DNA of 64,000 bases from an uncultured Gammaproteobacteria bacterium (lineage in GTDB: Bacteria; Patescibacteriota; Microgenomatia; CAZETR01): NCBI GenBank assembly GCA_964514545.1, contig CAZETR010000011.1:26294-90293 (forward strand), given 5' to 3'. Under the pieces are notes generated by a model that worked only from the letters and a program-made list of their open reading frames with translations, was not told where the DNA came from and did not search any database. The translations under genes were made by a program, and so were the position numbers. Shown piece after piece: positions 8,457 through 64,000 of this stretch (the first letter of the stretch is position 1; every line of letters begins with the position of its first letter).

Positions 8457-8519
8457 AGACCCTTATTATAAGCATCATTGTGCGATTATCAATCAGAATA
8501 TTTTAATCCATCAACCTAC

Positions 8520-8996
8520 TCATTTCTTTACCCAATTACTTAGAAGGTCTGAGCTTGATCTTATCTTCCCACCACCAACTCCGAATATGATTTGGCACCT
8601 TACCTTTATACACGCGTTCCTTTCGAGAATAGGTATTTTTTTGATTGAATCTATGTCTCCACCATTGGCCCAGATGTTTGGCTTTAGGTGGAGAATTGCA
8701 TTAACTACATCCCCACCTCCCATAACAAATACGTCGTCCACGCATCGCAACTCTTTAATTATGGCAACCCTATCTTCTAATGGCATAAATACTTTTCCTT
8801 TCTTTTTAATTGTGTATTCATCCCCGTCGATGACCACTACTAGCTTGTCTCCAAGCGCCTTTGCGGCCTGAAAGGAAAGTAGGTGACCTAAATGAAGTGG
8901 GTCAAAACTTCCACTTACCATAACAACTTTTTCTTTTCTTAATTCTCTTGAATTTCTTTGTAGCAATCTTTTCTTGTCTTTTTTCCGATTTAGCAT
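8520..8996 (-). CDS. Cytidylyltransferase-like nucleotidyltransferase (HxGH family, TagD/RfaE-domain-II-like)
   Basis: MVSGSFDPLHLGHL (HxGH) plus a Rossmann-like layout. The basic N-terminal 25 aa may lie upstream of the true start at 8921. Confidence 0.65.
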   Translation of the reverse strand: MLNRKKDKKRLLQRNSRELRKEKVVMVSGSFDPLHLGHLLSFQAAKALGDKLVVVIDGDEYTIKKKGKVFMPLEDRVAIIKELRCVDDVFVMGGGDVVNAILHLKPNIWANGGDIDSIKKIPILERNACIKVRCQIIFGVGGGKIRSSSDLLSNWVKK

Positions 8997-24607: not shown

Positions 24608-24613
24608 TTTGGG

Positions 24614-43218: not shown

Positions 43219-43231
43219 TTTTTTTAATGTT

Positions 43232-44203: not shown

Positions 44204-44207
44204 TCCG

Positions 44208-45686: not shown

Positions 45687-46311
45687 TTATGACACCTGGG
45701 AAATTTTTTATCATATTTTTAAGGGCAAAGATAATGGCATGATGCAGAACGACATGGGTTGCCTCGATCCCAGGTGTTCCGTATGGCTCCGAATTAATTG
45801 GTACTACCAAGCATACGTCTGCCATCTTCATCATGGCTCCCCCATTAAATCCCGCAAAGCCGATTATTTTTGCCTTACGGTCTTTGGCTAGTTTCATCGC
45901 CTGAACCAAGTTTTGCGACCACAGTCCAGCATCTCCCTCGCCTGCCCCGCCGTGGACTGAAAATCCAATCAAAACATCTTTGCTCGTAATCCAGGGGTCA
46001 AGTTGGCCGGCAAAAACGCTCCCCCATCCTTTGTCGTTGGTCCAAGCGCTGACCAATGGAATGTTGTCTACTAAGGAAATTGCCCTAAGCCCTTTTTTGC
46101 CGTCTGCCATGACGGTTTTTGCCAGGTCTGCTGCAAAATGTGTGGCTGTGGAAGCTGACCCTCCGCATCCCATGGTAAAAATGGTGCCTGAATTTTTCCA
46201 TGTTTCAAAAAGAATGTTTATAACTTTTTGAAGGTCATCATTTGACGAAAAGTGGATGGCTGATTTGACTATTTCAAAAAAATACCCGCTTAGTGAAAAG
46301 CTATTATCCAT
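45652..46311 (-). CDS. SIS-domain sugar-phosphate isomerase, GmhA-like (sedoheptulose-7-phosphate isomerase family)
   Basis: IFTMGCGGSASTATHFAADL matches GmhA GNGGSAADAQHFAAEL; about 200 aa. Confidence 0.75.
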   Translation of the reverse strand: MDNSFSLSGYFFEIVKSAIHFSSNDDLQKVINILFETWKNSGTIFTMGCGGSASTATHFAADLAKTVMADGKKGLRAISLVDNIPLVSAWTNDKGWGSVFAGQLDPWITSKDVLIGFSVHGGAGEGDAGLWSQNLVQAMKLAKDRKAKIIGFAGFNGGAMMKMADVCLVVPINSEPYGTPGIEATHVVLHHAIIFALKNMIKNFPGVINDKHRNPKTRS

Positions 46312-49381: not shown

Positions 49382-50181
49382 AAAATTGGTTTGATTGTTC
49401 TTTGCAAACTGTATATCGGAAGAATAAGTATTTTTGTGTGCAAATAGTGGAGAATTAACAAAATTTTATTATTGGTTTGGCCTCTGGCAATTTCTAGTTG
49501 CTCTTTAAACTGCTCCTTGAAATAATTAGTACTTTTTGAAAACCGGTGTTTGCGAAAAACAGATAGATAAGATTTAATAATTCGGGGCTTGCTCAACTGG
49601 CTTAATCTCAGCCAGTAGTCGTAGTCAAAGGCGAATTTGTATTTGGGATTGAATAGTCCAATCTTGTCGACTACTTCTCTTCTCCAGAAAGTTGAGGGTT
49701 GGGGAATCATGTTGAGAATTAGCTGAAAGAGGCGCGAGTAAAAAAGTAGTGAAAAATGGACGTAAGTTGTAATTAACGTACTTCTTGGATGTCTGCCGTT
49801 GAGTAAAACTTTATAGAAACCTGTTACCCAGAGATTTTTTGGGTGATTTTCAAATTCTATGGCAATCTTTTGCAGAGTTCCGGGAAGATAAAAGTCGTCG
49901 GAGTTAAGATAGCCAATTATCTTTCCTGTTGCAACTTTGAGACCTTTGTTCAGCGCATCAACTTGGCCTTTGTCCCTTTCTGATTTCCATCTTATGACTT
50001 TGGGGTGTTTACGGGCGTACCTTTTAATTATTTCAATCGAATTGTCCGTCGATCCTCCATCAAAGATCAGGTATTCTAGGTTTGAGTAATCTTGGTTAAT
50101 GACGCTTTGAATCGTATTATCCAGAAATTTCGCCTGGTTGTACGATGGGGTAATGATTGTAATTTTTGGCCAGGCTTTCAT
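49378..50181 (-). CDS. Glycosyltransferase family 2
   Basis: ITIITPSYNQAKFL...FDGGSTDNS...YLNSDDFY. Confidence 0.8.
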   Translation of the reverse strand: MKAWPKITIITPSYNQAKFLDNTIQSVINQDYSNLEYLIFDGGSTDNSIEIIKRYARKHPKVIRWKSERDKGQVDALNKGLKVATGKIIGYLNSDDFYLPGTLQKIAIEFENHPKNLWVTGFYKVLLNGRHPRSTLITTYVHFSLLFYSRLFQLILNMIPQPSTFWRREVVDKIGLFNPKYKFAFDYDYWLRLSQLSKPRIIKSYLSVFRKHRFSKSTNYFKEQFKEQLEIARGQTNNKILLILHYLHTKILILPIYSLQRTIKPIL

Positions 50182-50183
50182 TA

Positions 50184-50525
50184 CTATTTCTTTTTTCCTT
50201 TGGAGATAACGGTAAACTTGCTGATTAGCTTTTCCATCTCTTTTTTTAGTTCCAGGTGGGAAATATAATTGTTGTAGTTCATAACAGTCAGGATAATGAA
50301 TGCAATTACCATGATAAAGTCCAGGGTCCTGACAAAATGAAACTTCTTGGCAATCGGATCAAGCAACTGAGGGAAAAGTGAGAAGACAATAAAGGAAGAC
50401 CACAGAATTGCCCAGAAAATGAAGCTTTGTTTTAGGATATGCCCTTTTTTGTAATGAATAAGGCCCGCGTAGACCATGAAACATGCGAATGGGACGGTAA
50501 TTAGCTGAACTCCTAAAAGATTCAT
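50184..50525 (-). CDS. Small membrane protein (DUF2304-like, GT2-associated)
   Basis: 113 aa with three or four TM helices. ATGA-coupled downstream of a Dpm1-like GT2, the usual arrangement for DUF2304. Confidence 0.4.
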   Translation of the reverse strand: MNLLGVQLITVPFACFMVYAGLIHYKKGHILKQSFIFWAILWSSFIVFSLFPQLLDPIAKKFHFVRTLDFIMVIAFIILTVMNYNNYISHLELKKEMEKLISKFTVISKGKKK

Positions 50526-51193
50526 CTTCTTTGGGTAATTTTAAATGTCGGAATTGATAAAAAGACTTCAATTGCTTCGAGCAGAGAGACGCCTTTGAAT
50601 TGGTCAAGGTAAATGTTTTCTATTGGTATTTCGGTGTATTTTATTCCGGCTGAACCGATTCTGGCAATCATTTCGGTTTCGACACCATAGCGTTCTGACA
50701 CCCATTTTATTTGTCTGTATGCCGAGGAGCGAAATGCCCTGAATCCGCAAAGGAGGTCTTTGACGTAGATGCCATAGATACCGGAGACCAGAATCGCTGC
50801 GACCCTGTTTCCTAATTTGCGAACAATTGGTACTGGGTGGTGGCCGGTTCTAATACCAATTGCAACGTTGTATTTTTTGAGGGCCTTGATAAATTTAGAA
50901 ATGTGAGAAGGTTTGTGCTGACCGTCTGCGTCAAAGGTAATAATCGCCTTAGCTCCGACGGAAATTGCGTATTCAATCCCCTTCCTTAACGCATATCCTT
51001 TACCCTTATTAAGGGGGAGTGACATTAGTGTTATTGGCAATTGTCTGGCTATTTTAGGAGTGTTATCGGTTGATCCGTCGTCGACGAGAATAATGTTTTT
51101 GCACTCCTTTCGAACACCCTGAATAACTTCGCGGATGTGTCTTTCTTCATTATAGGCAGGAATAACGACATAGGTATTGGATCTATTTATCAT
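50522..51193 (-). CDS. GT2 polyprenyl-phosphate sugar synthase-like (Dpm1-type)
   Basis: YVVIPAYNEERHI...LVDDGSTDNT...TFDADGQHKP. Confidence 0.8.
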   Translation of the reverse strand: MINRSNTYVVIPAYNEERHIREVIQGVRKECKNIILVDDGSTDNTPKIARQLPITLMSLPLNKGKGYALRKGIEYAISVGAKAIITFDADGQHKPSHISKFIKALKKYNVAIGIRTGHHPVPIVRKLGNRVAAILVSGIYGIYVKDLLCGFRAFRSSAYRQIKWVSERYGVETEMIARIGSAGIKYTEIPIENIYLDQFKGVSLLEAIEVFLSIPTFKITQRR

Positions 51194-52323
51194 GCTACCC
51201 AGTAGCCTCTGGTAAACCTCATCCAGAGGAAAAAGAGCCCTGAGACGGAAATGAGGAAATATACTAGCGTTAGTTTTCTGCGGCTGGAAAAAAACTGTGC
51301 AAGAAGAAGAAATGAAGGGAAACAGACCAGAACATAACGAGGTAGTGATACGAAGCTACCGGTAAGCGTGGGCACGATAAATGCAAGGAGATTGAAAATG
51401 GAATAAGAAAGGCGGTGTTTGACTAGGGAAAAAAACGAGGTGATTAGGAACACTGTTCCGACAATTGCCTCCAAAACAATAGTCGAATAGATATCACTCG
51501 ACCTATCTACCGTTGTTATCATTTTAAAATAGCGCCAGTATACTTGATAGAGCATGATTATTTTTTGACTCCTAAATTCGCCGTAGTGACTCAGTGATCT
51601 GATGAAAATAAATGGGTCGCCTGTGGAGGATTTGAGAAATTGCATATAGTAGATTAGCCCCAGGGGTATTAAACAAATCGCGAGTAGGGAACGAAAACTT
51701 GTCGACGGGTGGTTTTTTCTTTGTGTAAACCATTCAATAATCATCGCGGGAAAGAGGAAAATCCCTACAAATCTGGTTGAGGTAGCCAATAATCCCGCTA
51801 TTCCAGCTAACCACCATTTTTTTCTTCTGGCTCCATAAAAAGTCAAAACTGTTAACAATAAAAAAAGCGATTCGGTGTATACAGCTCCAAAGTAAAAGCT
51901 GGTTGGAAATATCAATATAACTAGCAAGGTAAGCAGGCTAACATTTTTGGTGTAGTCGAGTGCAATTAATTTGTATAAAAAGAATAGGGCCGTGATAAAA
52001 CAAACATTGGAAATTGTAAATCCGGCTAATGCCGAATTCGAATTGAATAAAGGGGAAAGACTTTTTATTAGATTGGGATAAAGCGGAAAAAAGGCCTGTT
52101 CTGCAAGCCTGTAGCCAAATTTTGCAATCCCAAGGTAATGTTCACCGTCAAAGTTTGCGTGGACCCAAAGAAGAGGATTTTTTTCAACTGTTTTCCAGTC
52201 AGTTCCCAATAAGTCATGTTTGAGCTGAAAAAACTTGGGGGCAATGAAGATCAGCGCTATGAGCAGTAATCTCCACGAAATAAAGCCGGCAATAATTCTC
52301 TTTGTGGGTGTGTAAAGAATCAT
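51190..52323 (-). CDS. GT-C-like membrane glycosyltransferase (PIG-V/mannosyltransferase-like), tentative
   Basis: WVHANFDGEHYLGIAKFGY...AFFPLYP resembles PIG-V/GT76-type mannosyltransferase signatures. Multi-pass membrane. Confidence 0.45.
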   Translation of the reverse strand: MILYTPTKRIIAGFISWRLLLIALIFIAPKFFQLKHDLLGTDWKTVEKNPLLWVHANFDGEHYLGIAKFGYRLAEQAFFPLYPNLIKSLSPLFNSNSALAGFTISNVCFITALFFLYKLIALDYTKNVSLLTLLVILIFPTSFYFGAVYTESLFLLLTVLTFYGARRKKWWLAGIAGLLATSTRFVGIFLFPAMIIEWFTQRKNHPSTSFRSLLAICLIPLGLIYYMQFLKSSTGDPFIFIRSLSHYGEFRSQKIIMLYQVYWRYFKMITTVDRSSDIYSTIVLEAIVGTVFLITSFFSLVKHRLSYSIFNLLAFIVPTLTGSFVSLPRYVLVCFPSFLLLAQFFSSRRKLTLVYFLISVSGLFFLWMRFTRGYWVA

Positions 52324-52334
52324 GTTGAGTATGT

Positions 52335-53168
52335 CTAGCGCCAGTCTTGAGCTATTCTTTCTCGCGTCTGCGGATTGTGTTTAAATTCCCAGTATTTTAC
52401 GTAGGCTGATGCTTTGGTTAATCCGCTATAAAAGGCAAAAATAAATCCCGGGAAACCGTCTACGAATCCCAGGTGGCGAACGTAAATGGAAATGAATATT
52501 AACACGGGTGAAAAAATAAAGAACCTAATAAAGCTAATAGGTCCGGTTCCCGGGTTGATTGCGAATAATTCGTGGGCAAAGAGGGTTGAATAACGATTGT
52601 CCTTCGTAATATAGGCTGAAAATGAAGGTGTTGGTAAATGGATTAGTTCGTTTTCTAACCAACCGATTTGTCCGGCTATTTCGATTTGTTCATGGACACT
52701 CGTCTGCGGAAATTTGCCCTTTCTTCGACGGAATAACCTGACTACCGGGTCAGGGTAGTGACCACCCTTCTTGATCCAACGACCGAGAAACTGTTTTTTT
52801 CGCTTGATCCAGTAGCCATCAGCGGCATTCTTTGACTCTATAACTCTTTTTATCTCGTCTGCTAACTGCGGTGAAACCCTTTCATCAGCATCAAGCTGCA
52901 AAACCCAGTCTCCCCTTGCCATACCGATGGCCTTCTGTTTCAGAATATGAAAAAGTGGCTTATTTTCCGTTACGATTGTTCTCGCCCCGAGGTTTTTTGC
53001 AATTTCAACTGTGTGGTCATGCGAATTTCCATCTACTATTACAACCTCTTCTGCAAATTTTTTAACCGAGTCAAGACAGTCAACAATGTTTTGTTCTTCA
53101 TTGAAGGTCGCGAGGCAAACGGAAAGTTTAATTTTAGACCCTGAATAATTCAAATGCTGGTTTGCCAT
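52335..53168 (-). CDS. Glycosyltransferase family 2 with C-terminal membrane anchor
   Basis: LSVCLATFNEE...VIVDGNSHDHT...LQLDADE, followed by two hydrophobic helices. Confidence 0.8.
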   Translation of the reverse strand: MANQHLNYSGSKIKLSVCLATFNEEQNIVDCLDSVKKFAEEVVIVDGNSHDHTVEIAKNLGARTIVTENKPLFHILKQKAIGMARGDWVLQLDADERVSPQLADEIKRVIESKNAADGYWIKRKKQFLGRWIKKGGHYPDPVVRLFRRRKGKFPQTSVHEQIEIAGQIGWLENELIHLPTPSFSAYITKDNRYSTLFAHELFAINPGTGPISFIRFFIFSPVLIFISIYVRHLGFVDGFPGFIFAFYSGLTKASAYVKYWEFKHNPQTRERIAQDWR

Positions 53169-54798
53169 TTGGAAAGTTGATCGTTTTAATGGGTGAAATG
53201 CCTGCGGGCGCCTCTTCCGGGGAGGTAATAATGAGAGCGTTGTGGTACTCGGCCATATTGTCCCATTTTATTGGTTTGAACTCAAATTTGCTGAATCTCT
53301 CAACTGTCGAAAAGCCGAAATTGTCACGGGGTGTCAGAACATGATCGGCCTGAAATTGCGACGGGTTGAAACCTGTAAAGAAAAGGGTAAGTATGTACGG
53401 TTGGTCATATCTGTCGGTGATCACGATTTTATCAAAGTTTGAGCCATTTTCTCTAAGATACTTGACCAATTCCTGAAAGCCGTATTGGGATGAAAATGGT
53501 AAACTTTTGGCCAAGTGATTATAGTACTGATGAAGGTAATAGGTAAAATTCCAAGTTATTACTGCAAGTAGAAGGATATGCACTAACAGATTCTTGGGGC
53601 GGGCTTTTGGTCGCCCAATTATCGAAACGAGTCCAAACGCAGATATGAGTTCCAGGGGGATAATCATGTTTTCGGCGCGTAAGGCGTGGGGACTTTGGAA
53701 AGTCAGAGAGGATGCAAGTGGAGCGATGATAAGCCATAGAATTGGAAACTTGCCTAATCCTTTTGCGCCAGCAAGGAAAATTATGCCGATGGCAAGAGTT
53801 GGGATTTCAAAATAATAAAGCAGGCCCATGTTAGGGATTTTATTTCTCTGGATTTCGTCTCCACTAATAAAAAGGAAGTCAGCCGAAAAATGTCGGGTGT
53901 AATTGTCGAAGAAACGAATTGTATATTCGACAAGGCGGTTGTGAATTAGTTTCGCTCCTTGGCTAAACGGAAAACGATGCTGGGATCTCAGTTCATCCGA
54001 GCGCGATTTAGGTCCAGGATCAGATGTGATGCCGACTCCCAGAAATCTAGCTGAAGCACGGCTACTGAAAAAGCTGGCTACTATAGGTAATAATAAAATT
54101 ATAGAGATTGCAATTGATGGTAGTAGCTTACTAAGTTCGGGTCGCTCACTTCTTGGGGTGGTTAAATAAAGTGCAAGAGCCAATATTGGAGCGACCAGGC
54201 GCATCGAGTGGTAGAGGTACATCGTAAGCAGAAAGGCAAATACGGAAAGTTTGGGAGATCGGGCTAGTTTGACAGACTTAATGTACTGCAGGATACCAAA
54301 GAGAAGTACTGTAGTTGCTGCGTTACTCTCCCAACCACCACGCGAAAAGTGGATATGCCATGGAGAAATAGCTAGGAGGAAACCAGCGACGGTTCCGATT
54401 GAAAATTGAATACTGAAAATTGAAAATTGTTTACCCGGGTAAATTAGGTTTGCAAGCTCGCTTATAAGAAAGATGGAGAAGATCGAGAGGAGGATATTGG
54501 GAAGGCGGACCGCGAGTGTGTTTAGACCAAGTGTTTTAACAAACGGGAGAGCAAGGTAGAAATAGGCTCCCGGTTTGTAATCATTGAATGATTGAAATTC
54601 AAACGGCCAGGGACGGCCGTGTTCGTCTTTTCCGGTTTTGATCAAAGAATAGGTGTTATAACCGATGGCTGCTTCATCGGCATTCAGAGCCGGAAGCGAG
54701 CTGATCTTATAGAATCTGAGAACTGAAGATAAAAGAAGAATGAGAAAAAGAGGAATATTTTTCTTCCACTTCACTGCCATGACTTTAATCGGGTTCAT
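53134..54798 (-). CDS. GT39/ArnT-family (PMT_2) membrane glycosyltransferase, paralog 1
   Basis: LNADEAAIGYNTYSLIKTGKDEHG N-terminal loop with DE, SPWHIHFSRGGWESN, and more than ten TM segments. Confidence 0.8.
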   Translation of the reverse strand: MNPIKVMAVKWKKNIPLFLILLLSSVLRFYKISSLPALNADEAAIGYNTYSLIKTGKDEHGRPWPFEFQSFNDYKPGAYFYLALPFVKTLGLNTLAVRLPNILLSIFSIFLISELANLIYPGKQFSIFSIQFSIGTVAGFLLAISPWHIHFSRGGWESNAATTVLLFGILQYIKSVKLARSPKLSVFAFLLTMYLYHSMRLVAPILALALYLTTPRSERPELSKLLPSIAISIILLLPIVASFFSSRASARFLGVGITSDPGPKSRSDELRSQHRFPFSQGAKLIHNRLVEYTIRFFDNYTRHFSADFLFISGDEIQRNKIPNMGLLYYFEIPTLAIGIIFLAGAKGLGKFPILWLIIAPLASSLTFQSPHALRAENMIIPLELISAFGLVSIIGRPKARPKNLLVHILLLAVITWNFTYYLHQYYNHLAKSLPFSSQYGFQELVKYLRENGSNFDKIVITDRYDQPYILTLFFTGFNPSQFQADHVLTPRDNFGFSTVERFSKFEFKPIKWDNMAEYHNALIITSPEEAPAGISPIKTINFPNGKPAFELFRV

Positions 54799-56450
54799 TG
54801 TTTTTTGGATGCGAAAATATAGAAAGCCGGAGATTTGTCAGGGTATTCAATTTCTTTAACCAGCCTTACATCGGTTTGGTTTTTGGCGTTTGGATCCATG
54901 GCAAGAGGCTCCCCTACAACAAGGGTGTTCGATAGGTATTTATCCCCACTCCAGGCAAGCGGCCGAAACTCCACGTTGTCAATTTTTTCGATTAATCCAA
55001 CGTCTCCGTTTGGATTTTCCTTTAGTCTGACTTGGGGCCACCATTTCCGCGGGTCATATTTTTGATAAAAGAGAAAATAAATATAGGGTTGAGCGTAACT
55101 TTGGTTGAAAATAATTTTTTGGTATTGGGTCTGAATAGGGCTTAAGGCATTTACTACTTGTTTATAGCCAAAGTACCAATATTTAGCGTTGAGGAGAGAT
55201 GTGTGGATAAATTCCAGATCAAGAAACCTAACCAAAGAGATTGTGTATAAAATGATGATTAGAGCGATAATTGGTTTTGCGCTTTTAAAAGATCTGACCA
55301 GGTAAATTAGTCCGAATGCTGTCGCAAGAGTTAGCGGAGCAACAAAATTTAATGATCTGACCCCGTGTATTATGTCTCTGGAAAGGGCCGCCGAGAGAGG
55401 GGCTGTGGCAAGCCAGTAAAGCATAAATTTTTGACCTGATGATGAGGAGTTTACAATCTTGACTACACCGATAACTAAAAATACGGCTTCGAATATGTAC
55501 ATTACCCCGTGGTAGGGAGTTGAATGCCTAAGTGTCGTCCAATCGCCTTCAAATAAGAGAAATCTTGGAGAGAAGTAATTGAAATAGTGCAAGAGAAAAA
55601 CTTTAGAGAGATATAGGGGTTCCGAGTGATAAAGATAATAGGATAGGGTTTTTTGTGATTTTCCATCTTCGGACAGAAGTTGAGAGATTTCTTCCGGTGA
55701 TCTCCTGTAAGCAAATAAACTATAGACCTTGAGTCTTCCTGAACCAGTGCGCAGTGAAATAATTATCGGTAGTGCCAGAAGAGATAAAACGATAGTTGGT
55801 TTAATTAGGACTTTAGTTTGCGGCAGTTTGATTCTGTAGGCTAGTAAAAGCGACAAGATTGTTAACGGGGTGGATAATTTTGCTCCCTGGTAAGCCCAGA
55901 AGGTAAAACCAAAAAGTAGCGCCGAATAGTAATAAAATTTTGGTCTGTCGAGTGATTTTAAAAAGAAATGGATACCGGCCAAAGTAAGAGTAAGCGCGAG
56001 ATTTGATTCCCAGGCTCCCCTGGAGAGGTGGATGTGCCAAGGGGAGAGTGCGAGCAAGAAACTGGCGACGTGCCCAACGTTAAGTTTTAAGAAACTAGTT
56101 TTAACGTTGTTCTCGGAAAACAACGCGTTTGCGATAAAATATATCATTAGAACTGCCACTAATCCGGCTATGGCGCCCGGAAGACGAGTCGAGAATTCGT
56201 TGAGTCCAAAGATGGCTATAAACGGTATGTCTGAATAAATATAAAGACCCGGTTTATAATCCCCGAATGATTTAAAGACAATTGGGAACCTCTGACCGTA
56301 TTCGTCCCTGCCTGTTTTTAGAATCGAGTAAGCGTTGTAGCCCAGTGCTGCCTCGTCTGGTGTCAGATGGATTGGATTTGTACCCAGACCCCAGAATCGC
56401 AAAATTGTCGCTATAACTAATATTGAGAGTAAGGGTAAGTTCTTGAGCAT
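54795..56450 (-). CDS. GT39/ArnT-family membrane glycosyltransferase, paralog 2
   Basis: LTPDEAALGYNAYSILKTGRDEYG; SPWHIHLSRGAWESN. Confidence 0.8.
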   Translation of the reverse strand: MLKNLPLLSILVIATILRFWGLGTNPIHLTPDEAALGYNAYSILKTGRDEYGQRFPIVFKSFGDYKPGLYIYSDIPFIAIFGLNEFSTRLPGAIAGLVAVLMIYFIANALFSENNVKTSFLKLNVGHVASFLLALSPWHIHLSRGAWESNLALTLTLAGIHFFLKSLDRPKFYYYSALLFGFTFWAYQGAKLSTPLTILSLLLAYRIKLPQTKVLIKPTIVLSLLALPIIISLRTGSGRLKVYSLFAYRRSPEEISQLLSEDGKSQKTLSYYLYHSEPLYLSKVFLLHYFNYFSPRFLLFEGDWTTLRHSTPYHGVMYIFEAVFLVIGVVKIVNSSSSGQKFMLYWLATAPLSAALSRDIIHGVRSLNFVAPLTLATAFGLIYLVRSFKSAKPIIALIIILYTISLVRFLDLEFIHTSLLNAKYWYFGYKQVVNALSPIQTQYQKIIFNQSYAQPYIYFLFYQKYDPRKWWPQVRLKENPNGDVGLIEKIDNVEFRPLAWSGDKYLSNTLVVGEPLAMDPNAKNQTDVRLVKEIEYPDKSPAFYIFASKKQ

Positions 56451-56453
56451 GAT

Positions 56454-58139
56454 TTAGCGTATTTCCAGTAAATCAAAGGCCGGATGCCCGTCGAGAAAAT
56501 TAATTGTGGAAAGTTTACTCCACCCTGATGGATAGTTCCCGGGGGAGGTCACTAATAACGCTGGTTTGACCAGGGGTATTTTAACTCCGCGCTCGGTTGT
56601 CAGATCTTTAACCTGCCAGTCATTTACAAACCAGTATTTCCCGAATCGATCTGTCCAGTACCAGTTTGACTGAAAATAACGGATTTTATTGGGATCGGTT
56701 TGTAGGTCGAGAGGGTTAAACTTAAGATAAAATAAATAAAACTCGTGCGGTTCGCCGTATTTTTTAGTCGTAATTACCGTACGGTACTCTGGATGAGAAC
56801 GCAGGAACTTAACGACGTCTTGGTAACCATACTGCCAGGCCCATGAGTAATTTACCCGATACGTTGTAAATAAAACTTTCATGTAATTGAATAGAGGTGC
56901 TGAGAGGCAGAGCGTAAGGGTAATAAAAAATATCTTAGTTGTATATTTAAGTTTGGTTTTCAAAAATTTGTGGGCAAGAAAAATTCCAACAGCCGATATG
57001 AGTACAATTTCTGGGAGCATAAGTGAGCTCCTAATGACATGGTATTGACCTGACGTAAGAGCTGCCGGAATTGGTGAGGAGAAAAGAAGGATCAATACCG
57101 GAGATTTATAAAAGTGCCGATTTTTAACAAAATAGATAAGCCCGATGTAAAAAAAGGGTAGAATTACAAGCGGAAGGAGTCCAAAGCCAGGGATACTGTA
57201 TTGATACTGACTGCCGCCGGAGACAAATAAAAAGTTGGGTAAAAAATAACCGATGTAATTCTTAAAACTTTGTTTGACAACGTAGATCCCCTTGTTGTAA
57301 ATAAGGCGAGAGAAAATTGCCGGGTAGGGTGATTTTCCCCGAAGATGGTTTATTTCGTTAATTGCGCCTGAGTCTAAAACAAAAACCCATGGGGCCCGAG
57401 CAGTCGATGATGAGGAGAGAAAAATCCAGAACATTGATGAGGATAGGAGCAATGCTGAAAGTAGGATTAAGACGTGTTTACTCGGATGTTTTATTATTTC
57501 GTTCAATTTATGAGCGTGTCGGAAAGCGAGGAAAATGAACAATATCGGAATGACGAGGCGAGTGTTGTGATAGGAAAATAGAGAGAAAGATAGACATAAC
57601 AATGAGAGGGGAAGGAAAAGCGAATGTCTGTGACGGTGAAAGTAAAGAGCAACGCCGCTAATGAAAAAGAAAAGAGCAATTGTTGACTGAAACACTGCTC
57701 GAGACGGGAGGATATGCCAAGGAGAAATTGCCAATAGAAGAGCGGCAAAAAGTGCGATGTTTTTTGAGTTAATGCTGGTTGGAGACTGTTCTAAGAGACC
57801 TGTTGTAAAGAAATAAATCGAAATAATTGAGAGGGAACCAAACAGGGCTGCCGGAAAACGGGTGCTAAACTCGGTGAGCCCAAAAGTAGCAATAAACGGT
57901 ATTGAAAGATACATATAGGCCGTGGTTGGATAATCCCCATAGGCTCTAAAGTTTATAATGGGTAGACGCTTCCCCCATTCGTCCCGTCCAGTCTTTAATA
58001 TTGAATAGGCGTTGTAACCATGACTAACCTCATCCCAGTTAAGAGAAGGTGGCGAGGACGAAAGGTGAAGAAAACGAAGAAATATCCCTAAAAAGAAAAT
58101 AAATATTAGCCCCGGCCAGGGATGTAAGAGTTTTTTCAT
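56454..58139 (-). CDS. GT39/ArnT-family membrane glycosyltransferase, paralog 3
   Basis: LNWDEVSHGYNAYSILKTGRDEWG; SPWHILPSRAVFQS. Confidence 0.8.
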   Translation of the reverse strand: MKKLLHPWPGLIFIFFLGIFLRFLHLSSSPPSLNWDEVSHGYNAYSILKTGRDEWGKRLPIINFRAYGDYPTTAYMYLSIPFIATFGLTEFSTRFPAALFGSLSIISIYFFTTGLLEQSPTSINSKNIALFAALLLAISPWHILPSRAVFQSTIALFFFISGVALYFHRHRHSLFLPLSLLCLSFSLFSYHNTRLVIPILFIFLAFRHAHKLNEIIKHPSKHVLILLSALLLSSSMFWIFLSSSSTARAPWVFVLDSGAINEINHLRGKSPYPAIFSRLIYNKGIYVVKQSFKNYIGYFLPNFLFVSGGSQYQYSIPGFGLLPLVILPFFYIGLIYFVKNRHFYKSPVLILLFSSPIPAALTSGQYHVIRSSLMLPEIVLISAVGIFLAHKFLKTKLKYTTKIFFITLTLCLSAPLFNYMKVLFTTYRVNYSWAWQYGYQDVVKFLRSHPEYRTVITTKKYGEPHEFYLFYLKFNPLDLQTDPNKIRYFQSNWYWTDRFGKYWFVNDWQVKDLTTERGVKIPLVKPALLVTSPGNYPSGWSKLSTINFLDGHPAFDLLEIR

Positions 58140-58145
58140 GGCGAG

Positions 58146-59762
58146 TTAAGGCTTTTGGTTGTCTTTAACTGACACGAACCTGAAGAGAACTTTTCCGCTG
58201 GGATCCAAAATATCTTTCAAGCTTTTTATATCTTCAGGAAAATCCTCATTTGAGCCGATCAAAAGAACATTGCCCCTATTTCTGTCGAGCGACCAATTTA
58301 AATCCCTAATCTCGTATTTGCCGAGATTGTAGCTTTCCAACTGATCTACGTATTTTTTGCCTGCTGATTCGTATCTAAGCCAGTCTTTGGAATTCTTTTG
58401 AAAATCGGGCGGATCCCAGGGTTTGTAAAAGGCCAGAAAACTTTGGGGTTCAGTATAGCGTTTCGAGAAATGGATGGAATCGTAATTGTTCTCGAGAGAG
58501 ATGGCTGTCTGAAAGGCTTCCCGGAAACTAGCTCTTTGACTGTAGATTGGCTTTTGAGGCAAAAGAAAAAAATATTTGAATAAAAAGTAAACTACGGAAA
58601 TCAGTAGAATTGTAAATATTAATTTTGGTTTAACTTTAGGGTTCGATTGAAGAAAGCGAGTTAGCCCAAAAGCCGAAAGGATCACACTTAGTGGCAGAAT
58701 TGTTATTCCTCGGTTTGCGTTTAGGTCTCCAGCCAATGCCGGCGCGATAGGGGCAAGTAAAAACCAGCCAAATATTAACTTCTTGTGGATGTGTTTTTCT
58801 CTGAGAAGAAAATAGATGGCGTATGCAATAAAGATAATTTCAATTCGATAGTGAAGAGGTGTTCCGGGAAAGTTAAGGTGGGAATTGTCCGGGCGGGCTC
58901 CGGTAAAGAAAAATGTGGGGGAAAAGTAGCTCAGGTAGTTTGTTATAAACTGCCCTCCAACAAAAATATATTTGTTATCGAATATTTTAACTATGGCTGG
59001 GTGGATTGGAATTTGTGGTCTGTTTGTAAAATATCCAGCAACATTTTGTGAAGAAAAGATACTTACGTCGCTGGCTCGCTTGAGGACAAGTTTAAAATTG
59101 AGGAGCGTGGGGAGAAATATGACAAAGAAAATTCCAAGTGAGGTTAGCAAATATATTCTTTTTACTCCGCGTGACCTGAGAAACGGAATAAGTATAATCG
59201 TTAACAAGAGTGTTGCGAGTCTCCACGAGTGATAGGTATATGTGTTAATTGCTAGAAACAGAAAACCCGAGTAAAGATATCTTCGATTGTGGATTCCTTT
59301 TATAGCTAGCAGTAGACCTAGACTAACAAAAAAAATGCCTAATCCACCTTCGAAAGCCGAACGCGAGACTTGGATATGCCACGGTGAAATGGCTAAGAGA
59401 ACCGCAGCCCACATACCGGTATGAGAATCAAATAATTCCCGAGTAAGCAAGTAAACAAGGAGTATTGAAAGGGTACCAAAAAGGACTGCTGGGAGTCGAG
59501 TCGAGAACTCCGACAGACCAAACAAAGCCACCGACGGAATTGTAAGGAATGTATAAAGGGGAGCTTTATAATCTCCAAAGCCCCGGGGGAATAGTGGAAG
59601 GAGTTCTCCCCATTCATCCCGTCCAGTTTTCAAAATTGAATAGGCGCTGTATCCCTGTCCTGCCTCGTCGGCATTAAAACCAGTTGGGAATTCGGTGATC
59701 AAGGCTATTCTTAGGAGGAATCCTAGAAAGAGGGAAAGTATCAGGACGTGTCGGAGGTTCAT
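58146..59762 (-). CDS. GT39/ArnT-family membrane glycosyltransferase, paralog 4
   Basis: FNADEAGQGYSAYSILKTGRDEWG; SPWHIQVSRSAFEG. Confidence 0.8.
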   Translation of the reverse strand: MNLRHVLILSLFLGFLLRIALITEFPTGFNADEAGQGYSAYSILKTGRDEWGELLPLFPRGFGDYKAPLYTFLTIPSVALFGLSEFSTRLPAVLFGTLSILLVYLLTRELFDSHTGMWAAVLLAISPWHIQVSRSAFEGGLGIFFVSLGLLLAIKGIHNRRYLYSGFLFLAINTYTYHSWRLATLLLTIILIPFLRSRGVKRIYLLTSLGIFFVIFLPTLLNFKLVLKRASDVSIFSSQNVAGYFTNRPQIPIHPAIVKIFDNKYIFVGGQFITNYLSYFSPTFFFTGARPDNSHLNFPGTPLHYRIEIIFIAYAIYFLLREKHIHKKLIFGWFLLAPIAPALAGDLNANRGITILPLSVILSAFGLTRFLQSNPKVKPKLIFTILLISVVYFLFKYFFLLPQKPIYSQRASFREAFQTAISLENNYDSIHFSKRYTEPQSFLAFYKPWDPPDFQKNSKDWLRYESAGKKYVDQLESYNLGKYEIRDLNWSLDRNRGNVLLIGSNEDFPEDIKSLKDILDPSGKVLFRFVSVKDNQKP

Positions 59763-61483
59763 CTCGAAAGGATGTAAAAAATAGGCTGAGCGGAGGGATT
59801 TAGAACTGTTTTGAGAATTCGCACGTCTTTTGTCGGACTGTTAATCCAATCTCCAGTTCCAATTTCATCTCGTGCGCTGGCAACATAAATATCACCCGGC
59901 TTTAGCAGTTCAATAAATCCCTGATCCTTGACGATCTTTTCAACTATTCCGAAATAATACTTATCTCCGATATTAAATCCTTTAAATCCGGGCACAATAT
60001 CCGATTTCATTTCATATGAAGTAAATTGTTTTTGAAATAGACCCGGATCGTAGTTGTACCAAAAGAGAAATCTGGGTAATGATGGCTCGTATGTATTGTT
60101 TATGTAAATTCTGTTAGTTTCTGAATCGTGTTTTTTGAGATAAAGCATGCTTTCTTTGAATCCGGACTGCCAAAAACGCCAGGATTCCCGTGGCCATTCT
60201 ACGTAATAGCGGAATAGATATTTGCTTATATTATAAGTTCCTAATAGGCAGACGATAATGATGGCTAACTTTACCGGCGTTTTGTGTTTTGAAGTAAATA
60301 ATTGATTTATTCCCATTGCTGAAATAATTGCAAGCGGTGGTAGGAGCACAATTAGCCTGCCGGCGTGATTGCCACCGTCCTTCGTTAATGCAGAGGCAAC
60401 GGGAGCAATCAAAAGCCAACCCAGAAGAAGATAATAAGGAGGCTTAACTGTTGAGGTGGTTACTAGTTGTTTGGCAATAACTCCGAAACCCAGAACTATG
60501 GTTATCGCTTCAAATAGATATAATTCTCCCATTCCACCTACGGAGTGACGTAGAATTGGATCTCCCTCAAATAAAAGAAAGTCGGTCGAGAACGATTTTA
60601 AGTAATTATGAATAATTTCTTCTCCGTATAGAGTTAGTTTATTTCGAAAAAACCGAGTCAGGGGAGAGATTGATTGTGATCTACGGGTGATCAGGTCGTG
60701 CAAGAGGGACTGGTCTCTGAAAAGAGAAATTTTGGAGAACCTTTCTGAAGGGGAGCCACGGGTGAGCTGGCCTATAAATGGGATAAGCAAGATAAGGGCA
60801 ATTATGCAGGCTGATGCGATCGTTGCCGGCTTGATCTGTTTGATTGATTTCCAATAGACGGATATTGCAGTTAAGAACAGTAATGGAATAAAAAGTATGG
60901 CAATCGCGTATGAGTATATTCCGAGGGCATTAATTGCAGCGGCTATAGGCAATAGCTTGGGTGTCGTTCGCGACTTTAAAAGGAAATACAGACCAAATAG
61001 AGAGAAAACCAGAACTCCGATGTTGTCGTTATCCCAGCGAGAGAATTGAATATGCCAAGGGGAAATGGTCAATAGAATTAAGGAAATTAATCCTAGACGA
61101 CGGCCGAAAAGATCTCTGACAATTAAGAAGAAAGCGGCAAGGGAGAGGATTCCAAAAAAGACGCTTGGGAGTCTAACTCCCAATTCCGTAAGGCCAAAAA
61201 TAGCAATAAACGGAACTGTTGAATAGATATAGATCGGGAGTCTATATTCAGCAAACGATTTGAACATGACAGGCAATAAGTTCCCGTAGTAATCTCTTCC
61301 TGTCCTGAGAATCGAGTTTGCCTGTAATCCAACATCTATTTCGTCACCTGATAATTCGATTGGCACCCGATCAAGCTTGTAGGTTCTTAAAAATATGGCG
61401 AGAATAAAAGTTAGTATGACTAGAAGGGAGTACTTGGAGAGCATATGGCTACGTTCATTGTATCTTATTCTTCGTAGATGCAA
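59759..61483 (-). CDS. GT39/ArnT-family membrane glycosyltransferase, paralog 5
   Basis: LSGDEIDVGLQANSILRTGRDYYG; SPWHIQFSRWDNDN. Confidence 0.8.
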   Translation of the reverse strand: MHLRRIRYNERSHMLSKYSLLVILTFILAIFLRTYKLDRVPIELSGDEIDVGLQANSILRTGRDYYGNLLPVMFKSFAEYRLPIYIYSTVPFIAIFGLTELGVRLPSVFFGILSLAAFFLIVRDLFGRRLGLISLILLTISPWHIQFSRWDNDNIGVLVFSLFGLYFLLKSRTTPKLLPIAAAINALGIYSYAIAILFIPLLFLTAISVYWKSIKQIKPATIASACIIALILLIPFIGQLTRGSPSERFSKISLFRDQSLLHDLITRRSQSISPLTRFFRNKLTLYGEEIIHNYLKSFSTDFLLFEGDPILRHSVGGMGELYLFEAITIVLGFGVIAKQLVTTSTVKPPYYLLLGWLLIAPVASALTKDGGNHAGRLIVLLPPLAIISAMGINQLFTSKHKTPVKLAIIIVCLLGTYNISKYLFRYYVEWPRESWRFWQSGFKESMLYLKKHDSETNRIYINNTYEPSLPRFLFWYNYDPGLFQKQFTSYEMKSDIVPGFKGFNIGDKYYFGIVEKIVKDQGFIELLKPGDIYVASARDEIGTGDWINSPTKDVRILKTVLNPSAQPIFYILSR

Positions 61484-61629
61484 AGTGGGGTCTGGAGCGT
61501 ATCAACAACCGCCAACTTACGCAGGTGGTTTGCCGTACTTCTCTCGCTTTGCGAGTCCGCCTTCGGCAGAAAATCTACATCTACCAGATAACGCTGGTAG
61601 ATTTAAGACTTGAAGTATAAAGTTGGGGT
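61484..61629. promoter_or_regulatory. Divergent intergenic region with a perfect 7-bp inverted repeat (candidate operator/promoter region)
   Basis: CTACCAG-ATAACG-CTGGTAG at 61581..61600. The region is GC-richer than its surroundings and lies between the head-to-head GT39 array and the plus-strand paralogs. Confidence 0.3.
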
Positions 61630-63183
61630 ATGTTTGATCACCGAAATAGGTCATGGAAGTTGATACTTGTAGTTCTTCCGGTTTTGATCAAAGTTTTTTT
61701 GTTATTAAATATTCAACTCGGCATTCAGGAGCATCTGTATCTATATAGGGCATGGACTTTGGTAAAGTTCGGGAGGGACGAGACCGGAAACTTTCTGCCA
61801 CCAATTTTTCAGTCTCATGAGAGCTACCAGTTGCCATTTTTGTCGTATCTGATTGTTCCTGTCGTGGGAGTTTTAGGTCTGAATTTCTTCTCCGGGGCAA
61901 TTGTTGAGATGGGGTTATGGGCTGGTTTAGCTTTATTGCTATTGCATAAGTTCAAGGGAATAGGGGCTCCATTGATGGTACTTGTGGGTCCAATTTTTGT
62001 TTGGCCGGGGAGTTGGGAAGCAAAGCTATTGGTTGTGGAGCTAATGCTTTGGTTTATATTTCTGGAGCGGAGGAGATGGATAGCTTTAACTGGAATTGGA
62101 GTATTGATGTTGCTGACTTCTTTTGATAGCTATGTTTTGCTACCGACCTTGATTTTGGGAGCTGGAGTTGCATTTCCAACTTTGAGAAAAGGATTGTTTA
62201 CTCCCGGGGTCTGTTTAATTCTGCTCGTGACGAGCTTGATGTTCCAAGCCAGAAGATTTCCAGGACTTGGGAGAGCATTTCGAGAGAAGGAGTTTGGTGT
62301 GTTTCTTGGCTCTGAAGTTAGTTCCACAATAAACTTACTCAGAGGCGAGGATTTGAGAGCAAATGTTCAAGTGTGGGCGCGGGTCTGGCATAATAAACTT
62401 TCATATGGAACTGTCTTTATTAATAACTTCTTAACTGCGACTGATCCGGTACTGTTCTTTGGGCATGGGGATCTGGACAAAAGATCTAATAGCCAGTGGG
62501 TTGGAATCCTGTTGGTAGTGTACCTGCCGATGTTGGTTTTGGTTGTCCGATTTTGGAAAATGAGTTACGCTTGGTGGGTTTATGTTTTTGTGGTCGGGAT
62601 AGTGATCGCGAGTTTGAAAGGTACGCAGGTTTTTGAGCGAGATATGTTTATCGCTGCCTTGTGTTTGGTAATTATTATTGCCGGAGTAATGGATCGATTT
62701 CCGTTATGGGGCTACAGGGTTCAGGTTGGTGCCACTATGCTTTTATTGTTTGCTGTCTATTTTTCAGCTAATTTTCATCCCTTAAATATGGAAATCGAAT
62801 CCGGGTATGGGCTGAAAAATATAGCTAGTTTAGCGTTAGCTCACCCGAATACATTAGTTTTGTTCGCAGATGATGTCTATGCTAATCCAGGACCAACTTT
62901 AGCTTATTATATGAAACCAGTCCCTCTCAAAAATAAGTTGAGTGTTTTTGGGTACAGGCAGTTTTTACGTAGAGTTGGGAATATTGAAGTGGTGACCCCT
63001 AACGATAAACGCCTGGAACTGGAACGCGAGATGTGCCGGAAAGTTGATTTAGCTCCGATTCGAATTGTTTCAGCAAATGCAGTTAATGGTTGGTCGGATT
63101 ACAGGCTCGCCGTAGTAAAACCTATTATTGTTCAACGTTCAGGAATACCCCTTGTCTATTCAGCTGTTTACAATGAAAAGTAA
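61630..63183 (+). CDS. Divergent GT39-like membrane protein lacking the catalytic DE motif (possible pseudo-glycosyltransferase)
   Basis: LGIQEHLYLYRAWTLVKFGRDETGNF...YQLPFLSYLIVP aligns with the LNADEAAIGYNTYSLIKTGKDEHG...YKPGAYFYLALP loop of the neighbours, but has QEH in place of DE. Polytopic. Confidence 0.55.
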   Translation: MFDHRNRSWKLILVVLPVLIKVFLLLNIQLGIQEHLYLYRAWTLVKFGRDETGNFLPPIFQSHESYQLPFLSYLIVPVVGVLGLNFFSGAIVEMGLWAGLALLLLHKFKGIGAPLMVLVGPIFVWPGSWEAKLLVVELMLWFIFLERRRWIALTGIGVLMLLTSFDSYVLLPTLILGAGVAFPTLRKGLFTPGVCLILLVTSLMFQARRFPGLGRAFREKEFGVFLGSEVSSTINLLRGEDLRANVQVWARVWHNKLSYGTVFINNFLTATDPVLFFGHGDLDKRSNSQWVGILLVVYLPMLVLVVRFWKMSYAWWVYVFVVGIVIASLKGTQVFERDMFIAALCLVIIIAGVMDRFPLWGYRVQVGATMLLLFAVYFSANFHPLNMEIESGYGLKNIASLALAHPNTLVLFADDVYANPGPTLAYYMKPVPLKNKLSVFGYRQFLRRVGNIEVVTPNDKRLELEREMCRKVDLAPIRIVSANAVNGWSDYRLAVVKPIIVQRSGIPLVYSAVYNEK

Positions 63184-64000
63184 AATAATTTTGTTCTTGA
63201 TTCTTTTTGTTGCGGGTTTCTTGAGATTGTATTTGCTGGGAAAATATCCTACTTCGTTAAGTGTAGACGAAGTGTCGATTGGATATAACGCCTATTCAAT
63301 TCTCTCTACTGGCAGGGATCAGTATAGACGATTTTTTCCGTTGGTATTTGAGTCTCTCGGAGATTTCAAATCTCCAGTTTACATTTATGTGACGGCTGTA
63401 TCTGAGAAATTGTTAGGGGTTAATGAAGTTGCTGTGCGGGTTCCAGCAGCCGCTGCGGGAATTGTCGTAGTGTTCTTAGCCTACCTGGTAATTTACCGGT
63501 TAACGGGAAAGGTTAATTTGGCTTTGTGCTCGGCGGCGGTCCTCGCGCTTTCGCCTTGGCATATCAGATTTTCCAGAGGTGCCTATGAAGCAAGCTTGGC
63601 CCTCGCGTTTTTAATGTCAGCTTTTTACTGCCTAATTAGATTGAAAAAATTCACGTTGGGGCTAGTAATGGCTATATTCTCTATGTATACCTACCACGCC
63701 GAAAAGATTATTGCCCCACTGTTTGTTATGGGCATGGTGGTTATTTATCGAGATCGTTTCCATGTTTTGTGGAATGGCTCAAGGAAAAGAATGGTCTTTC
63801 TGGGATTTGTCTTTGCCTTAGCCACAATGGTAGCTGTTTTTATAAACGGTGGACAAGTGAGAGCCTTACACACGAGCATATTAAGTGATGTTGGGGTAAA
63901 TCAGGGATTGAGTCAAACTAAAGGGCTAAAGAGCGTAAATCGCGCATTTCTTGTATTTAGTACAATTACGAATAGGTATATTCAATATTTTGGCTCGTAT
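63173..64000 (+). CDS. GT39/ArnT-family membrane glycosyltransferase, paralog 6 (3' truncated at window edge)
   Basis: Manual translation from ATG at 63173 gives MKSKIILFLILFVAGFLRLYLLGKYPTSLSVDEVSIGYNAYSILSTGRDQYRRFFP...SPWHIRFSRGAYEAS. Not in the ORF track because it runs off the window. Its start overlaps the stop of the previous gene. Confidence 0.75.
   Translation, partial: MKSKIILFLILFVAGFLRLYLLGKYPTSLSVDEVSIGYNAYSILSTGRDQYRRFFPLVFESLGDFKSPVYIYVTAVSEKLLGVNEVAVRVPAAAAGIVVVFLAYLVIYRLTGKVNLALCSAAVLALSPWHIRFSRGAYEASLALAFLMSAFYCLIRLKKFTLGLVMAIFSMYTYHAEKIIAPLFVMGMVVIYRDRFHVLWNGSRKRMVFLGFVFALATMVAVFINGGQVRALHTSILSDVGVNQGLSQTKGLKSVNRAFLVFSTITNRYIQYFGSY

Follow-up and report, generated by a model that had tools for sequence, protein, structure and literature searches.

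An anciently diverged, conserved array of ArnT-like GT-C glycosyltransferase paralogs in Microgenomates

Why does a bacterium of the Candidate Phyla Radiation (CPR) keep a tandem series of large membrane glycosyltransferases that all resemble one another, and what might they build? We addressed this question on a 64-kb stretch of Microgenomates DNA, hereafter the window, whose right-hand end carries seven such genes, named G1 to G7. The open reading frame (ORF) map agreed exactly with the positions given by the first-pass annotation of this DNA: five genes lie on the minus strand and two on the plus strand, the last of them, G7, running off position 64000. The array consists of the following elements:

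53134-54798, minus strand: G1, 554 aa, ArnT-like GT-C protein ending in an extracytoplasmic alpha/beta domain, last of the five genes in the run
54795-56450, minus strand: G2, 551 aa, ArnT-like GT-C protein, the modelled representative of the family
56454-58139, minus strand: G3, 561 aa, ArnT-like GT-C protein, a paralog by BLASTP
58146-59762, minus strand: G4, 538 aa, ArnT-like GT-C protein (PMT_2, E 5.4e-12; PMT, E 1.1e-5)
59759-61483, minus strand: G5, 574 aa when started at TTG 61483, ArnT-like GT-C protein (PMT_2, E 4.7e-14), first gene of the run
61484-61629, no strand: divergent intergenic region between G5 and G6, 146 bp
61630-63183, plus strand: G6, 517 aa, divergent paralog in which the canonical catalytic residues are missing, possibly a non-catalytic partner of G7
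63173-64000, plus strand: G7, N-terminal 276 aa only (G7p), canonical ArnT/PMT-like GT-C protein (PMT, E 4.9e-10; PMT_2, E 9.5e-7)

Paralogy was assessed by BLASTP among the window proteins. G1 to G5 matched one another over their full length with E-values between 1e-33 and 1e-87, G7p matched the other paralogs at 1e-24 to 1e-41, and G6 did so at about 1e-5 to 1e-10 with some 300 residues aligned, confirming that the seven genes are true paralogs. Their identities, announced as 30-50%, turned out lower: 27-31% among G1-G5, 29-37% for G7p and 22-25% for G6 (against G1, G2 and G5). The genes had also been described as mostly ATGA-coupled. Such overlaps were found at two of the four G1-G5 junctions (G5/G4 and G2/G1), the remaining two being gaps of 6 nt (G4/G3) and 3 nt (G3/G2), and G6 and G7 overlap by 11 nt. 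The 13 residues added to G5 by the TTG start have no counterpart in the paralogs, and a -35/-10-like site (TTTGCA-16-TACAAT, minus strand, 61484-61457) lies inside this extension; for these two reasons the ATG at 61444, giving a protein of 561 aa, appears the more likely start. The arrangement across the 146-bp gap is indeed divergent, as first described. The promoter attributed to it was not borne out, the single sigma-70-like match being no more than expected in shuffled sequence.

To which family do these proteins belong? Family membership was examined with Pfam and NCBIfam and the fold by comparison with solved structures. The proposed assignment to PMT_2 (PF13231, gathering threshold 26.1 bits) held for G2 (26.9 bits, marginal), G4 (46.6 bits), G5 (53.3 bits) and G7p (29.6 bits) and failed for G1, G3 and G6, for which no Pfam match of any kind was obtained. 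PF02366 (PMT) scored above its cut-off only in G4 (25.6 bits) and G7p (39.8 bits). With NCBIfam, the paralogs gave only sub-threshold matches to Agl23, ArnT and STT3: the best Agl23 (TIGR03663) scores were 35-45 bits for a cut-off of 126.25 and covered only the N-terminal 150-220 residues, and the ArnT equivalog (PRK13279, cut-off 567 bits) reached 22.8 bits in G3, 17.1 bits in G4 and gave no match in the other paralogs. Profiles of the family searched against the sequences of the PDB yielded marginal matches (STT3, E 0.013; ArnT, E 0.011), and the assignment was therefore based on fold comparison. The proteins have a polytopic GT-C membrane fold, the nearest solved structure by fold is ArnT, and ArnT, ALG12, STT3 and AglB all ranked above any protein O-mannosyltransferase (PMT) structure. 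The initial label GT39 is thus too specific, since ArnT belongs to GT83 and the sequence similarity to solved enzymes is marginal. Judged from fold and motifs, the G proteins are ArnT-like; they are not ArnT orthologs, because their NCBIfam scores fall far below the cut-off.

Among the candidates scored, we counted 3608 homologs of G2, the named ones being assigned to Candidatus Microgenomates, Woesebacteria or the 'Patescibacteria group'; the closest are 54-63% identical. By these relatives the window would come from a Microgenomates-type CPR bacterium. They are publicly labelled 'glycosyltransferase family 39 protein' or 'ArnT-like'; the former label does not establish a protein O-mannosyltransferase function.

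The active site was compared with that of ArnT, using the numbering of G2 throughout. In GT-C enzymes, the first Asp of an Asp-Glu pair in extracytoplasmic loop 1 (EL1; D55/E56 in ArnT, D77/E78 in Pmt1) is essential, K85 of ArnT touches the carrier phosphate, D158 of ArnT, in EL2 ahead of transmembrane helix 4 (TM4), touches the sugar or the acceptor, and an Arg of EL5 ahead of TM10 binds the carrier phosphate (PMC7801869). The corresponding set in the G family comprises D32-E33 in EL1, K66, which aligns with ArnT K85, E148, which aligns with ArnT D158, and R365 just before a TM10-like helix. The DE and SPWHI motifs, said to be diagnostic of the array, are present in G1-G5 and G7, and are altered in G6, where DE becomes QE and SPWHI becomes GP--I. 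With the exception of G6, all orthogroups keep D32, E33, D49, R144, Y187 and R365 without change or almost so (in 81 or more of 86 sequences), and K66 is mostly Lys or Arg within the canonical orthogroups. In the G1 orthogroup D32, E33, D49, K66, R144, Y187 and R365 are all invariant.

In the structural model of G2, about 11 transmembrane helices are predicted, with a cytoplasmic N-terminus, the active-site loops outside, and an extracytoplasmic alpha/beta domain at the C-terminus. A Kyte-Doolittle prediction of the topology was tried and discarded as too noisy; we relied instead on the helix boundaries of the model together with lysine plus arginine counts in the loops of 45 sequences. By helix parity, EL1, EL2, EL4 and EL5 would share one side of the membrane with the C-terminal domain, and Lys and Arg make up 29% of the loops that are cytoplasmic in the model versus 8% of the short outside loops, as the positive-inside rule requires. 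The DE loop is thus predicted to be extracytoplasmic, in agreement with the first-pass annotation. No MIR domain is present, the C-terminal domain being similar to the generic soluble modules found in other GT-C enzymes. Taken by fold, EL1 Asp-Glu pair and topology, the G proteins are members of the GT-C superfamily, G6 being devoid of the EL1 Asp.

Is the array a peculiarity of this genome? A scan with one genome per species returned 80 loci, in metagenome-assembled genomes (MAGs) of Woese-, Shapiro-, Ames-, Blackburn- and Daviesbacteria type. In all, 84 related loci, each of at most 21.7 kb, were compared, every ORF being assigned to its best-matching window gene; the best-match bit scores were clearly above the second-best ones. 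All 84 hold between 2 and 7 members of the family, most often 5, which answers the question of conservation raised with the initial description. The recurrent order is G5-G4-G3-G2-G1, followed by a GT2 glycosyltransferase gene (gt2a, 52335-53168) and the gene of a 377-aa membrane protein (C377). Adjacencies were counted only where the flanking sequence was sufficient (denominators of 61 to 76). G1 lies directly downstream of the G2 ortholog in 75 of 76 loci and G3 is adjacent to G2 in 68 of 71; the triplets G3-G2-G1 and G2-G1-gt2a are kept in 63/67 and 72/74 loci, respectively. Longer runs are less frequent: G4-G3-G2-G1 was observed in 43 of 63 loci, G1-gt2a-C377 in 43 of 69 and the complete G5-G4-G3-G2-G1 run in 24 of 61. 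As judged from this gene order, the array is a conserved operon-like unit of Microgenomates.

The initial description of an old expansion was strongly supported. Median identities of the orthologs to the window genes are 44% for G1, 40% for G2 and G3, 36% for G4 and 35% for G5, higher than the 27-31% that separate the paralogs within the window. Moreover, in a neighbour-joining tree of 370 sequences (363 locus proteins and the 7 window proteins) the orthogroups formed exclusive clades with about one member per locus: 76 members from 76 loci for G1, 85 from 81 for G2, 75 from 71 for G3, 50 from 49 for G4, 43 from 42 for G5 and 20 from 20 for G7. Since orthologs are closer than paralogs and the clades hold one member per locus, the duplications would predate the divergence of these lineages. 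It is thereby strongly supported, at the level of sequence, that six orthogroups (G1-G5 and G7) diverged anciently and have been individually retained, each canonical copy probably being kept as an active enzyme.

A 268-kb groundwater contig (L002) is syntenic with the right-hand third of the window except for the G4 slot. Its order is G5 ortholog (39% identity), a PTPS_related protein, G3 (53%), G2 (54%), G1 (50%), GT2 (48%), a 386-aa Mannosyl_trans2 protein (51%), GT2 (64%), DUF2304 protein (63%), GT2 (46%), a 520-aa membrane protein (30%) and a methyltransferase-GT2 fusion (58%). The occupant of the G4 slot (6692-8362, plus strand) is an unrelated membrane protein of 556 aa, and the run is lengthened by an upstream PTPS_related protein of 562 aa and by a GT87 protein of 408 aa. 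From this replacement the array appears to be modular.

In many related genomes a G7-type gene stands in reverse orientation between the orthologs of G5 and G4, some 7-9 kb upstream of G2 (L009, L012, L016, L019, L024, L025, L034, L035, L040, L044, L052, L065, L066, L068, L072 and L075). The position and orientation of G7 thus vary (in the window it lies beyond G5), and the G3-G2-G1 core is fixed. Many of the array-bearing MAGs (L005-L084) carry the record title 'uncultured Gammaproteobacteria bacterium', one 'Clostridia' and one 'Pseudomonadales'; these titles are probably placeholders or wrong labels.

G6 required a separate analysis. It differs from the canonical paralogs by the replacement of D32 by Q, K66 by Q and R144, the EL2 Arg behind SPWHI, by P, in addition to the loss of SPWHI. 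A word-indexed search returned only G6 itself, as if it were an orphan or decaying gene; this was ruled out by an exhaustive HMMER search, which recovered a G6 subfamily of 9 cluster representatives at E<1e-30, the best being 37% identical. Throughout this subfamily, EL1 carries xE instead of DE, the first Asp being missing; a Gln within (G/S)YQLP occupies the place of the Lys aligned to ArnT K85; FLWPGxWExKL replaces SPWHIxxSR; and the GRDE motif is kept along with conserved motifs of its own. Judged from these shared motifs, G6 represents a divergent lineage that has been maintained rather than a gene in decay, but residues essential in all characterised GT-C enzymes are missing from it. The gene directly following a G6-like gene on the same strand is of PMT type in 3/3 other contigs, and the two that could be read (in L085 and L086) are G7 orthologs, 49-50% identical to G7. 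By this recurrent neighbourhood G6-G7 is a conserved pair, for which a partnership of pseudoenzyme and enzyme may reasonably be proposed. The neighbour-joining tree also grouped 8 locus sequences with G6; they keep D32 and are not of G6 type, and the grouping was taken as a long-branch effect and left unused.

What surrounds the array gives indications on its donors. The genes downstream of G1 are as follows:

52335-53168, minus strand: gt2a, GT2 glycosyltransferase, 277 aa (Glycos_transf_2, E 2.5e-18), directly downstream of G1
51190-52323, minus strand: C377, polytopic membrane protein, 377 aa (weak PMT_2 match, E 1.7e-4)
50522-51193, minus strand: PpgS/GacI-like GT2, 223 aa (NCBIfam PpgS, E 1.8e-32, over the full profile length)
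50184-50525, minus strand: small membrane protein of the DUF2304 (GacJ/Rv3632) family, 113 aa (PF10066, E 6.9e-16)
49378-50181, minus strand: SpsA/chondroitin-synthase-like GT2, 267 aa, syntenic in L002 with 46% identity
47810-49381, minus strand: polytopic membrane protein, 523 aa, without Pfam or NCBIfam match; the corresponding position in L002 holds an ortholog of 30% identity
46390-47832, plus strand: fusion of a methyltransferase and an AglJ/Dol-P-hexose-transferase-like GT2; the corresponding position in L002 holds an ortholog of 58% identity

The PpgS-like GT2 lies directly upstream of the DUF2304 gene, about 2 kb from the array. It further matches AglJ, Dol-P hexose transferase and ArnC, and its best solved relatives are ArnC, DPMS and GtrB. 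GlcNAc-P-undecaprenol is the product of GacI, an enzyme to which GacJ binds and whose activity it strongly raises; GacL, a GT-C enzyme, subsequently moves N-acetylglucosamine (GlcNAc) onto polyrhamnose outside the cell, and PpgS and Rv3632 act like GacI and GacJ (bioRxiv 10.1101/180810). By analogy, the DUF2304 protein is a candidate activating partner of the upstream 223-aa GT2. Further AglJ/Dol-P-hexose-transferase-like GT2s are encoded at 35623-36348, at 31258-31971 and in the C-terminal half of 46390-47832. C377 is probably a second type of GT-C protein, PIG-V/Mannosyl_trans2-like, as suggested by its ortholog in L002 (51% identical), which carries PF04188 (Mannosyl_trans2); it also weakly matches the AZOBR_p60025 surface-glycopolymer family. 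Comparison of the 523-aa and 377-aa proteins with the G family by hhalign, run with single-sequence queries, was uninformative (probability of 2-4%).

Two natural fusions occur on a related contig (L086). One (4168-5304, plus strand, 378 aa) joins a GT2 to a GtrA_DPMS_TM domain. The other (6379-8547, plus strand, 722 aa) joins a GT2, similar to the polyprenyl-phosphate-synthase-like GT2s of the window, to PMT_2. Both fusions provide Rosetta-stone support for a functional link between these enzyme classes, GT2 and GT-C.

The rest of the window encodes a Wzm/Wzt pair, GT2 and GT4 enzymes, many methyltransferases, a DegT aminotransferase, a UDP-glucose dehydrogenase, epimerases and a heptose-like nucleotide-sugar pathway. 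The pair is laid out as follows:

23375-24607, minus strand: Wzt, ABC ATPase with a Wzt_C carbohydrate-binding domain
24614-25429, minus strand: Wzm, ABC-2 permease

By its domains, this pair (23375-25429) is an ABC-transporter-dependent polysaccharide export system. An APH-like kinase (20491-21900) and the many methyltransferases near it recall chain-terminator systems of the WbdD type. A second family of three large paralogs, all on the minus strand, is encoded at 25426-27471, 27474-29396 and 33138-34928 (681, 640 and 596 aa). They share 42% and 28-32% identity, have no Pfam match and weakly match the LIC_10190 family; roles as polymerases, as ligases or as additional membrane glycosyltransferases are conceivable. 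In the 613-aa protein encoded at 29427-31268 (minus strand), a C-terminal hexapeptide-repeat segment of acyltransferase type was the only part recognised, the N-terminal 550 residues being unmatched. The run 41519-46311 (NTP transferase, GHMP kinase, GFO/IDH oxidoreductase, a 247-aa protein, a transaldolase-family protein and a GmhA-like SIS-domain isomerase) resembles a pathway for nucleotide-activated heptose and could be the source of an unusual donor sugar. Finally, two MetW-like methyltransferase paralogs, 56% identical, stand in tandem at 4631-5308 and 5272-5910 (minus strand); this duplication is much more recent than the GT-C array.

From these elements we propose, as a probable though far from certain reading, an envelope-glycan locus in which sugars carried on polyprenyl phosphate are flipped across the membrane and used by six ArnT-like paralogs at different positions or stages of one glycoconjugate. 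In the cytoplasm, GT2s would transfer monosaccharides from nucleotide sugars to polyprenyl monophosphate; candidates for this step are the PpgS/GacI-like 223-aa GT2, together with the DUF2304/GacJ protein, and up to three of the further AglJ/Dol-P-hexose-transferase-like GT2s. The lipid-linked sugars would then cross the membrane via a putative flippase, and on the outer face each GT-C paralog would pass its sugar to a different acceptor position or at a different stage, so that together they would build or decorate one cell-surface glycoconjugate stepwise. G6 would most likely be a non-catalytic or re-purposed partner of G7. The use of polyprenyl-phosphate donors, already suggested in the first-pass annotation, and their use on the outer face are supported indirectly by the ArnT-like fold, by the EL1 Asp-Glu pair, the Lys and the EL5 Arg, by the topology, and by the PpgS-like GT2 with its DUF2304 neighbour. 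The retention of every orthogroup suggests a distinct specificity for each paralog. Two considerations favour a glycopolymer or a lipoglycan as the acceptor: the 64-kb window as a whole is a glycan island that includes Wzm/Wzt, and the GacL, Rgt and Emb/Aft/Mpt systems offer an analogy. Homology, fold, conserved motifs, topology parity, synteny and orthogroup structure are shown by the analysis; we infer from them which type of donor is used, on which side the reaction takes place, that the labour is divided stepwise, and what kind of acceptor is served.

These analogies deserve a closer look. ArnT (GT83; undecaprenyl-phosphate-L-Ara4N:lipid A transferase; 5ezm/5f15) is only 13% identical to the G family and is a single gene, whereas here six or seven orthogroups stand in an operon-like array. 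The general view of CPR bacteria is that they are monoderms lacking lipopolysaccharide (LPS), so lipid A cannot be the acceptor of the G family. Closer in composition are the three-component systems, namely streptococcal GacI/GacJ/GacK/GacL for the group A carbohydrate, PpgS/Rv3632/Rv3779 of M. tuberculosis, and CsbB/GtcA/YfhO, in which a GT2 synthase and a DUF2304 protein, parts encoded here too, accompany a GT-C enzyme acting on a surface polymer (bioRxiv 10.1101/180810; see also PMC11127046). Of their parts, a GT2 polyprenyl-phosphate glycosyltransferase is found near the array (50522-51193); the flippase was not recognised in the window by Pfam, and L086 has the GT2-GtrA fusion. However, those systems use one GT-C enzyme per donor and add a single side-chain sugar, whereas five to seven paralogs and a PIG-V-like protein are present here, and the GT-C family of the window is neither GacL nor YfhO.

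Tandem GT-C paralogs are also known in the cell-wall sets of mycobacteria and corynebacteria (EmbC-EmbA-EmbB, AftA-D, MptA/B/C and PimE), and the lipoarabinomannan and arabinogalactan machinery of mycobacteria, which builds glycans on the outer face, would be the model for the speculative assembly line described below. The PMTs (GT39; Pmt1/2/4 and bacterial Pmt) share the loop-1 DE motif and, in some paralogs, the PF02366/PF13231 matches; their conserved subfamilies, which dimerise and divide the labour, provide a useful parallel to the G paralogs. In Rhizobium, the genes of RgtA and RgtB are adjacent and the donor is dodecaprenyl-P-GalA. Several ArnT-like galacturonic acid (GalA) transferases, RgtA/RgtB/RgtC/RgtD, there use one lipid-linked donor for different positions of a glycolipid, RgtA and RgtB both adding GalA to Kdo (PMC4402001). 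The Rgt acceptor is the LPS core or lipid A of a diderm.

Several observations weigh against the proposed glycan locus. The GT2 most tightly linked to the array, gt2a, resembles protein and peptide glycosyltransferases and not the polyprenyl-phosphate synthases, its best solved relatives being GmaR and SunS. No flippase of GtrA, Wzx or small multidrug-resistance type was found by Pfam among the approximately 60 ORFs of the window. Wzm/Wzt is about 28 kb away from the array and none was seen within 10 kb of the arrays of L001 and L002, so that the tie of the array to an ABC-exported polymer is loose. The similarity to solved GT-C enzymes is marginal (E of about 0.01), the residue equivalences resting on a weak alignment combined with the fold match. 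Lastly, the comparison loci were picked by their similarity to G2, and the frequencies refer to genomes with a G2 ortholog, not to all CPR bacteria.

Some of these points would fit a role in protein O-glycosylation in the PMT sense, with sugars transferred to Ser/Thr residues of proteins that are secreted or exposed at the surface (S-layer proteins, pilins or adhesins, for example), and orthogroups serving different substrate classes or forming hetero- or homodimers like fungal Pmt1/Pmt2/Pmt4. The likeness of the closely linked gt2a to protein glycosyltransferases, the match of some paralogs to the PMT model and the precedent of conserved PMT subfamilies speak for it. Yet ArnT, ALG12, STT3 and AglB are all structurally nearer than any PMT, the C-terminal domain is a generic GT-C module rather than a MIR domain, and the surrounding 64 kb has the appearance of polysaccharide synthesis and export. 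We also counted against it that, to our knowledge, the characterised bacterial Pmt enzymes, those of actinobacteria, are single-copy. On balance we consider this role unlikely, though it deserves to be kept in mind. The strict gene order with ATGA overlaps or gaps of 3-6 nt could alternatively reflect stoichiometric production of subunits, the tandem paralogs forming one or a few hetero-oligomeric GT-C complexes in which some of them, clearly G6, are structural or regulatory; such complexes would be compatible with a polymer or a protein acceptor alike. Complexes between GT-C paralogs have been solved (EmbA-EmbB, 7bvf; Pmt1-Pmt2, 6p2r), and the conserved G6-G7 pair, with a G6 lacking catalytic residues, points the same way. 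However, G1-G5 and G7 all retain the full catalytic motifs and none of them need be a mere scaffold. The G4 and G5 slots, moreover, are variable (see the 43/63 and 24/61 counts), and in L002 an unrelated protein has taken the place of G4, so modular enzymes fit better than an obligate complex. Hetero-oligomeric complexes seem to us improbable as the main explanation.

A recent and rapid diversification, with largely redundant functions serving antigenic, phase or phage-receptor variation, might be imagined, surface-glycan loci being often hypervariable, G6 being very divergent, and the G4 and G5 slots and the extra copies on the opposite strand differing between genomes. It is largely refuted by the orthogroup structure and the conservation of residues: across about 80 species-level genomes the orthogroups correspond one-to-one and orthologs are closer than paralogs, and the catalytic residues are invariant or nearly so in the canonical orthogroups. 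The core gene order is, in addition, kept in more than 90% of loci. We give this scenario hardly any credence. The envelope-glycan locus is thus the reading that we retain. A bolder form of it, which we advance as a speculation and regard as doubtful, is an ancient, vertically inherited 'GT-C assembly line' (G5-G4-G3-G2-G1-GT2-PIG-V-like plus G6-G7) that would make a lineage-specific lipoglycan or wall glycan on the outer face through obligate hetero-oligomers, G6 being a dead subunit that would present the acceptor or regulate G7.

The kind of enzyme, the kind of pathway and the existence of tandem GT-C paralogs, in mycobacteria and rhizobia, are known already. In the literature that we searched, with limited coverage, no earlier description of such arrays in CPR bacteria was found. 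What appears to be new is an operon in which five to seven ancient GT-C orthogroups keep a fixed order across Microgenomates, two of them, G1 and G3, escaping both Pfam and NCBIfam, together with a conserved G6 partner subfamily that lacks the catalytic Asp. G1 and G3 may consequently go unrecognised as glycosyltransferases in annotations relying on these two databases.

For a specialist the biochemistry itself would hold little surprise; what is defined here is a testable envelope-glycan machinery in a poorly understood radiation. The CPR/Patescibacteria are a large and almost uncultivated group with tiny genomes and a cell-surface chemistry that is little characterised. That a genome of about 1 Mb keeps six or seven paralogs in fixed order, as do relatives across many candidate phyla, points to an important and conserved envelope glycoconjugate. 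The orthogroups, their invariant residues and the linked donor module are concrete targets for expression, donor assays and glycan analysis, and the G6-G7 pair is a natural test case of a GT-C pseudoenzyme. If the assembly-line glycan proved true, it would be a candidate surface structure for the attachment of these episymbionts to their hosts.

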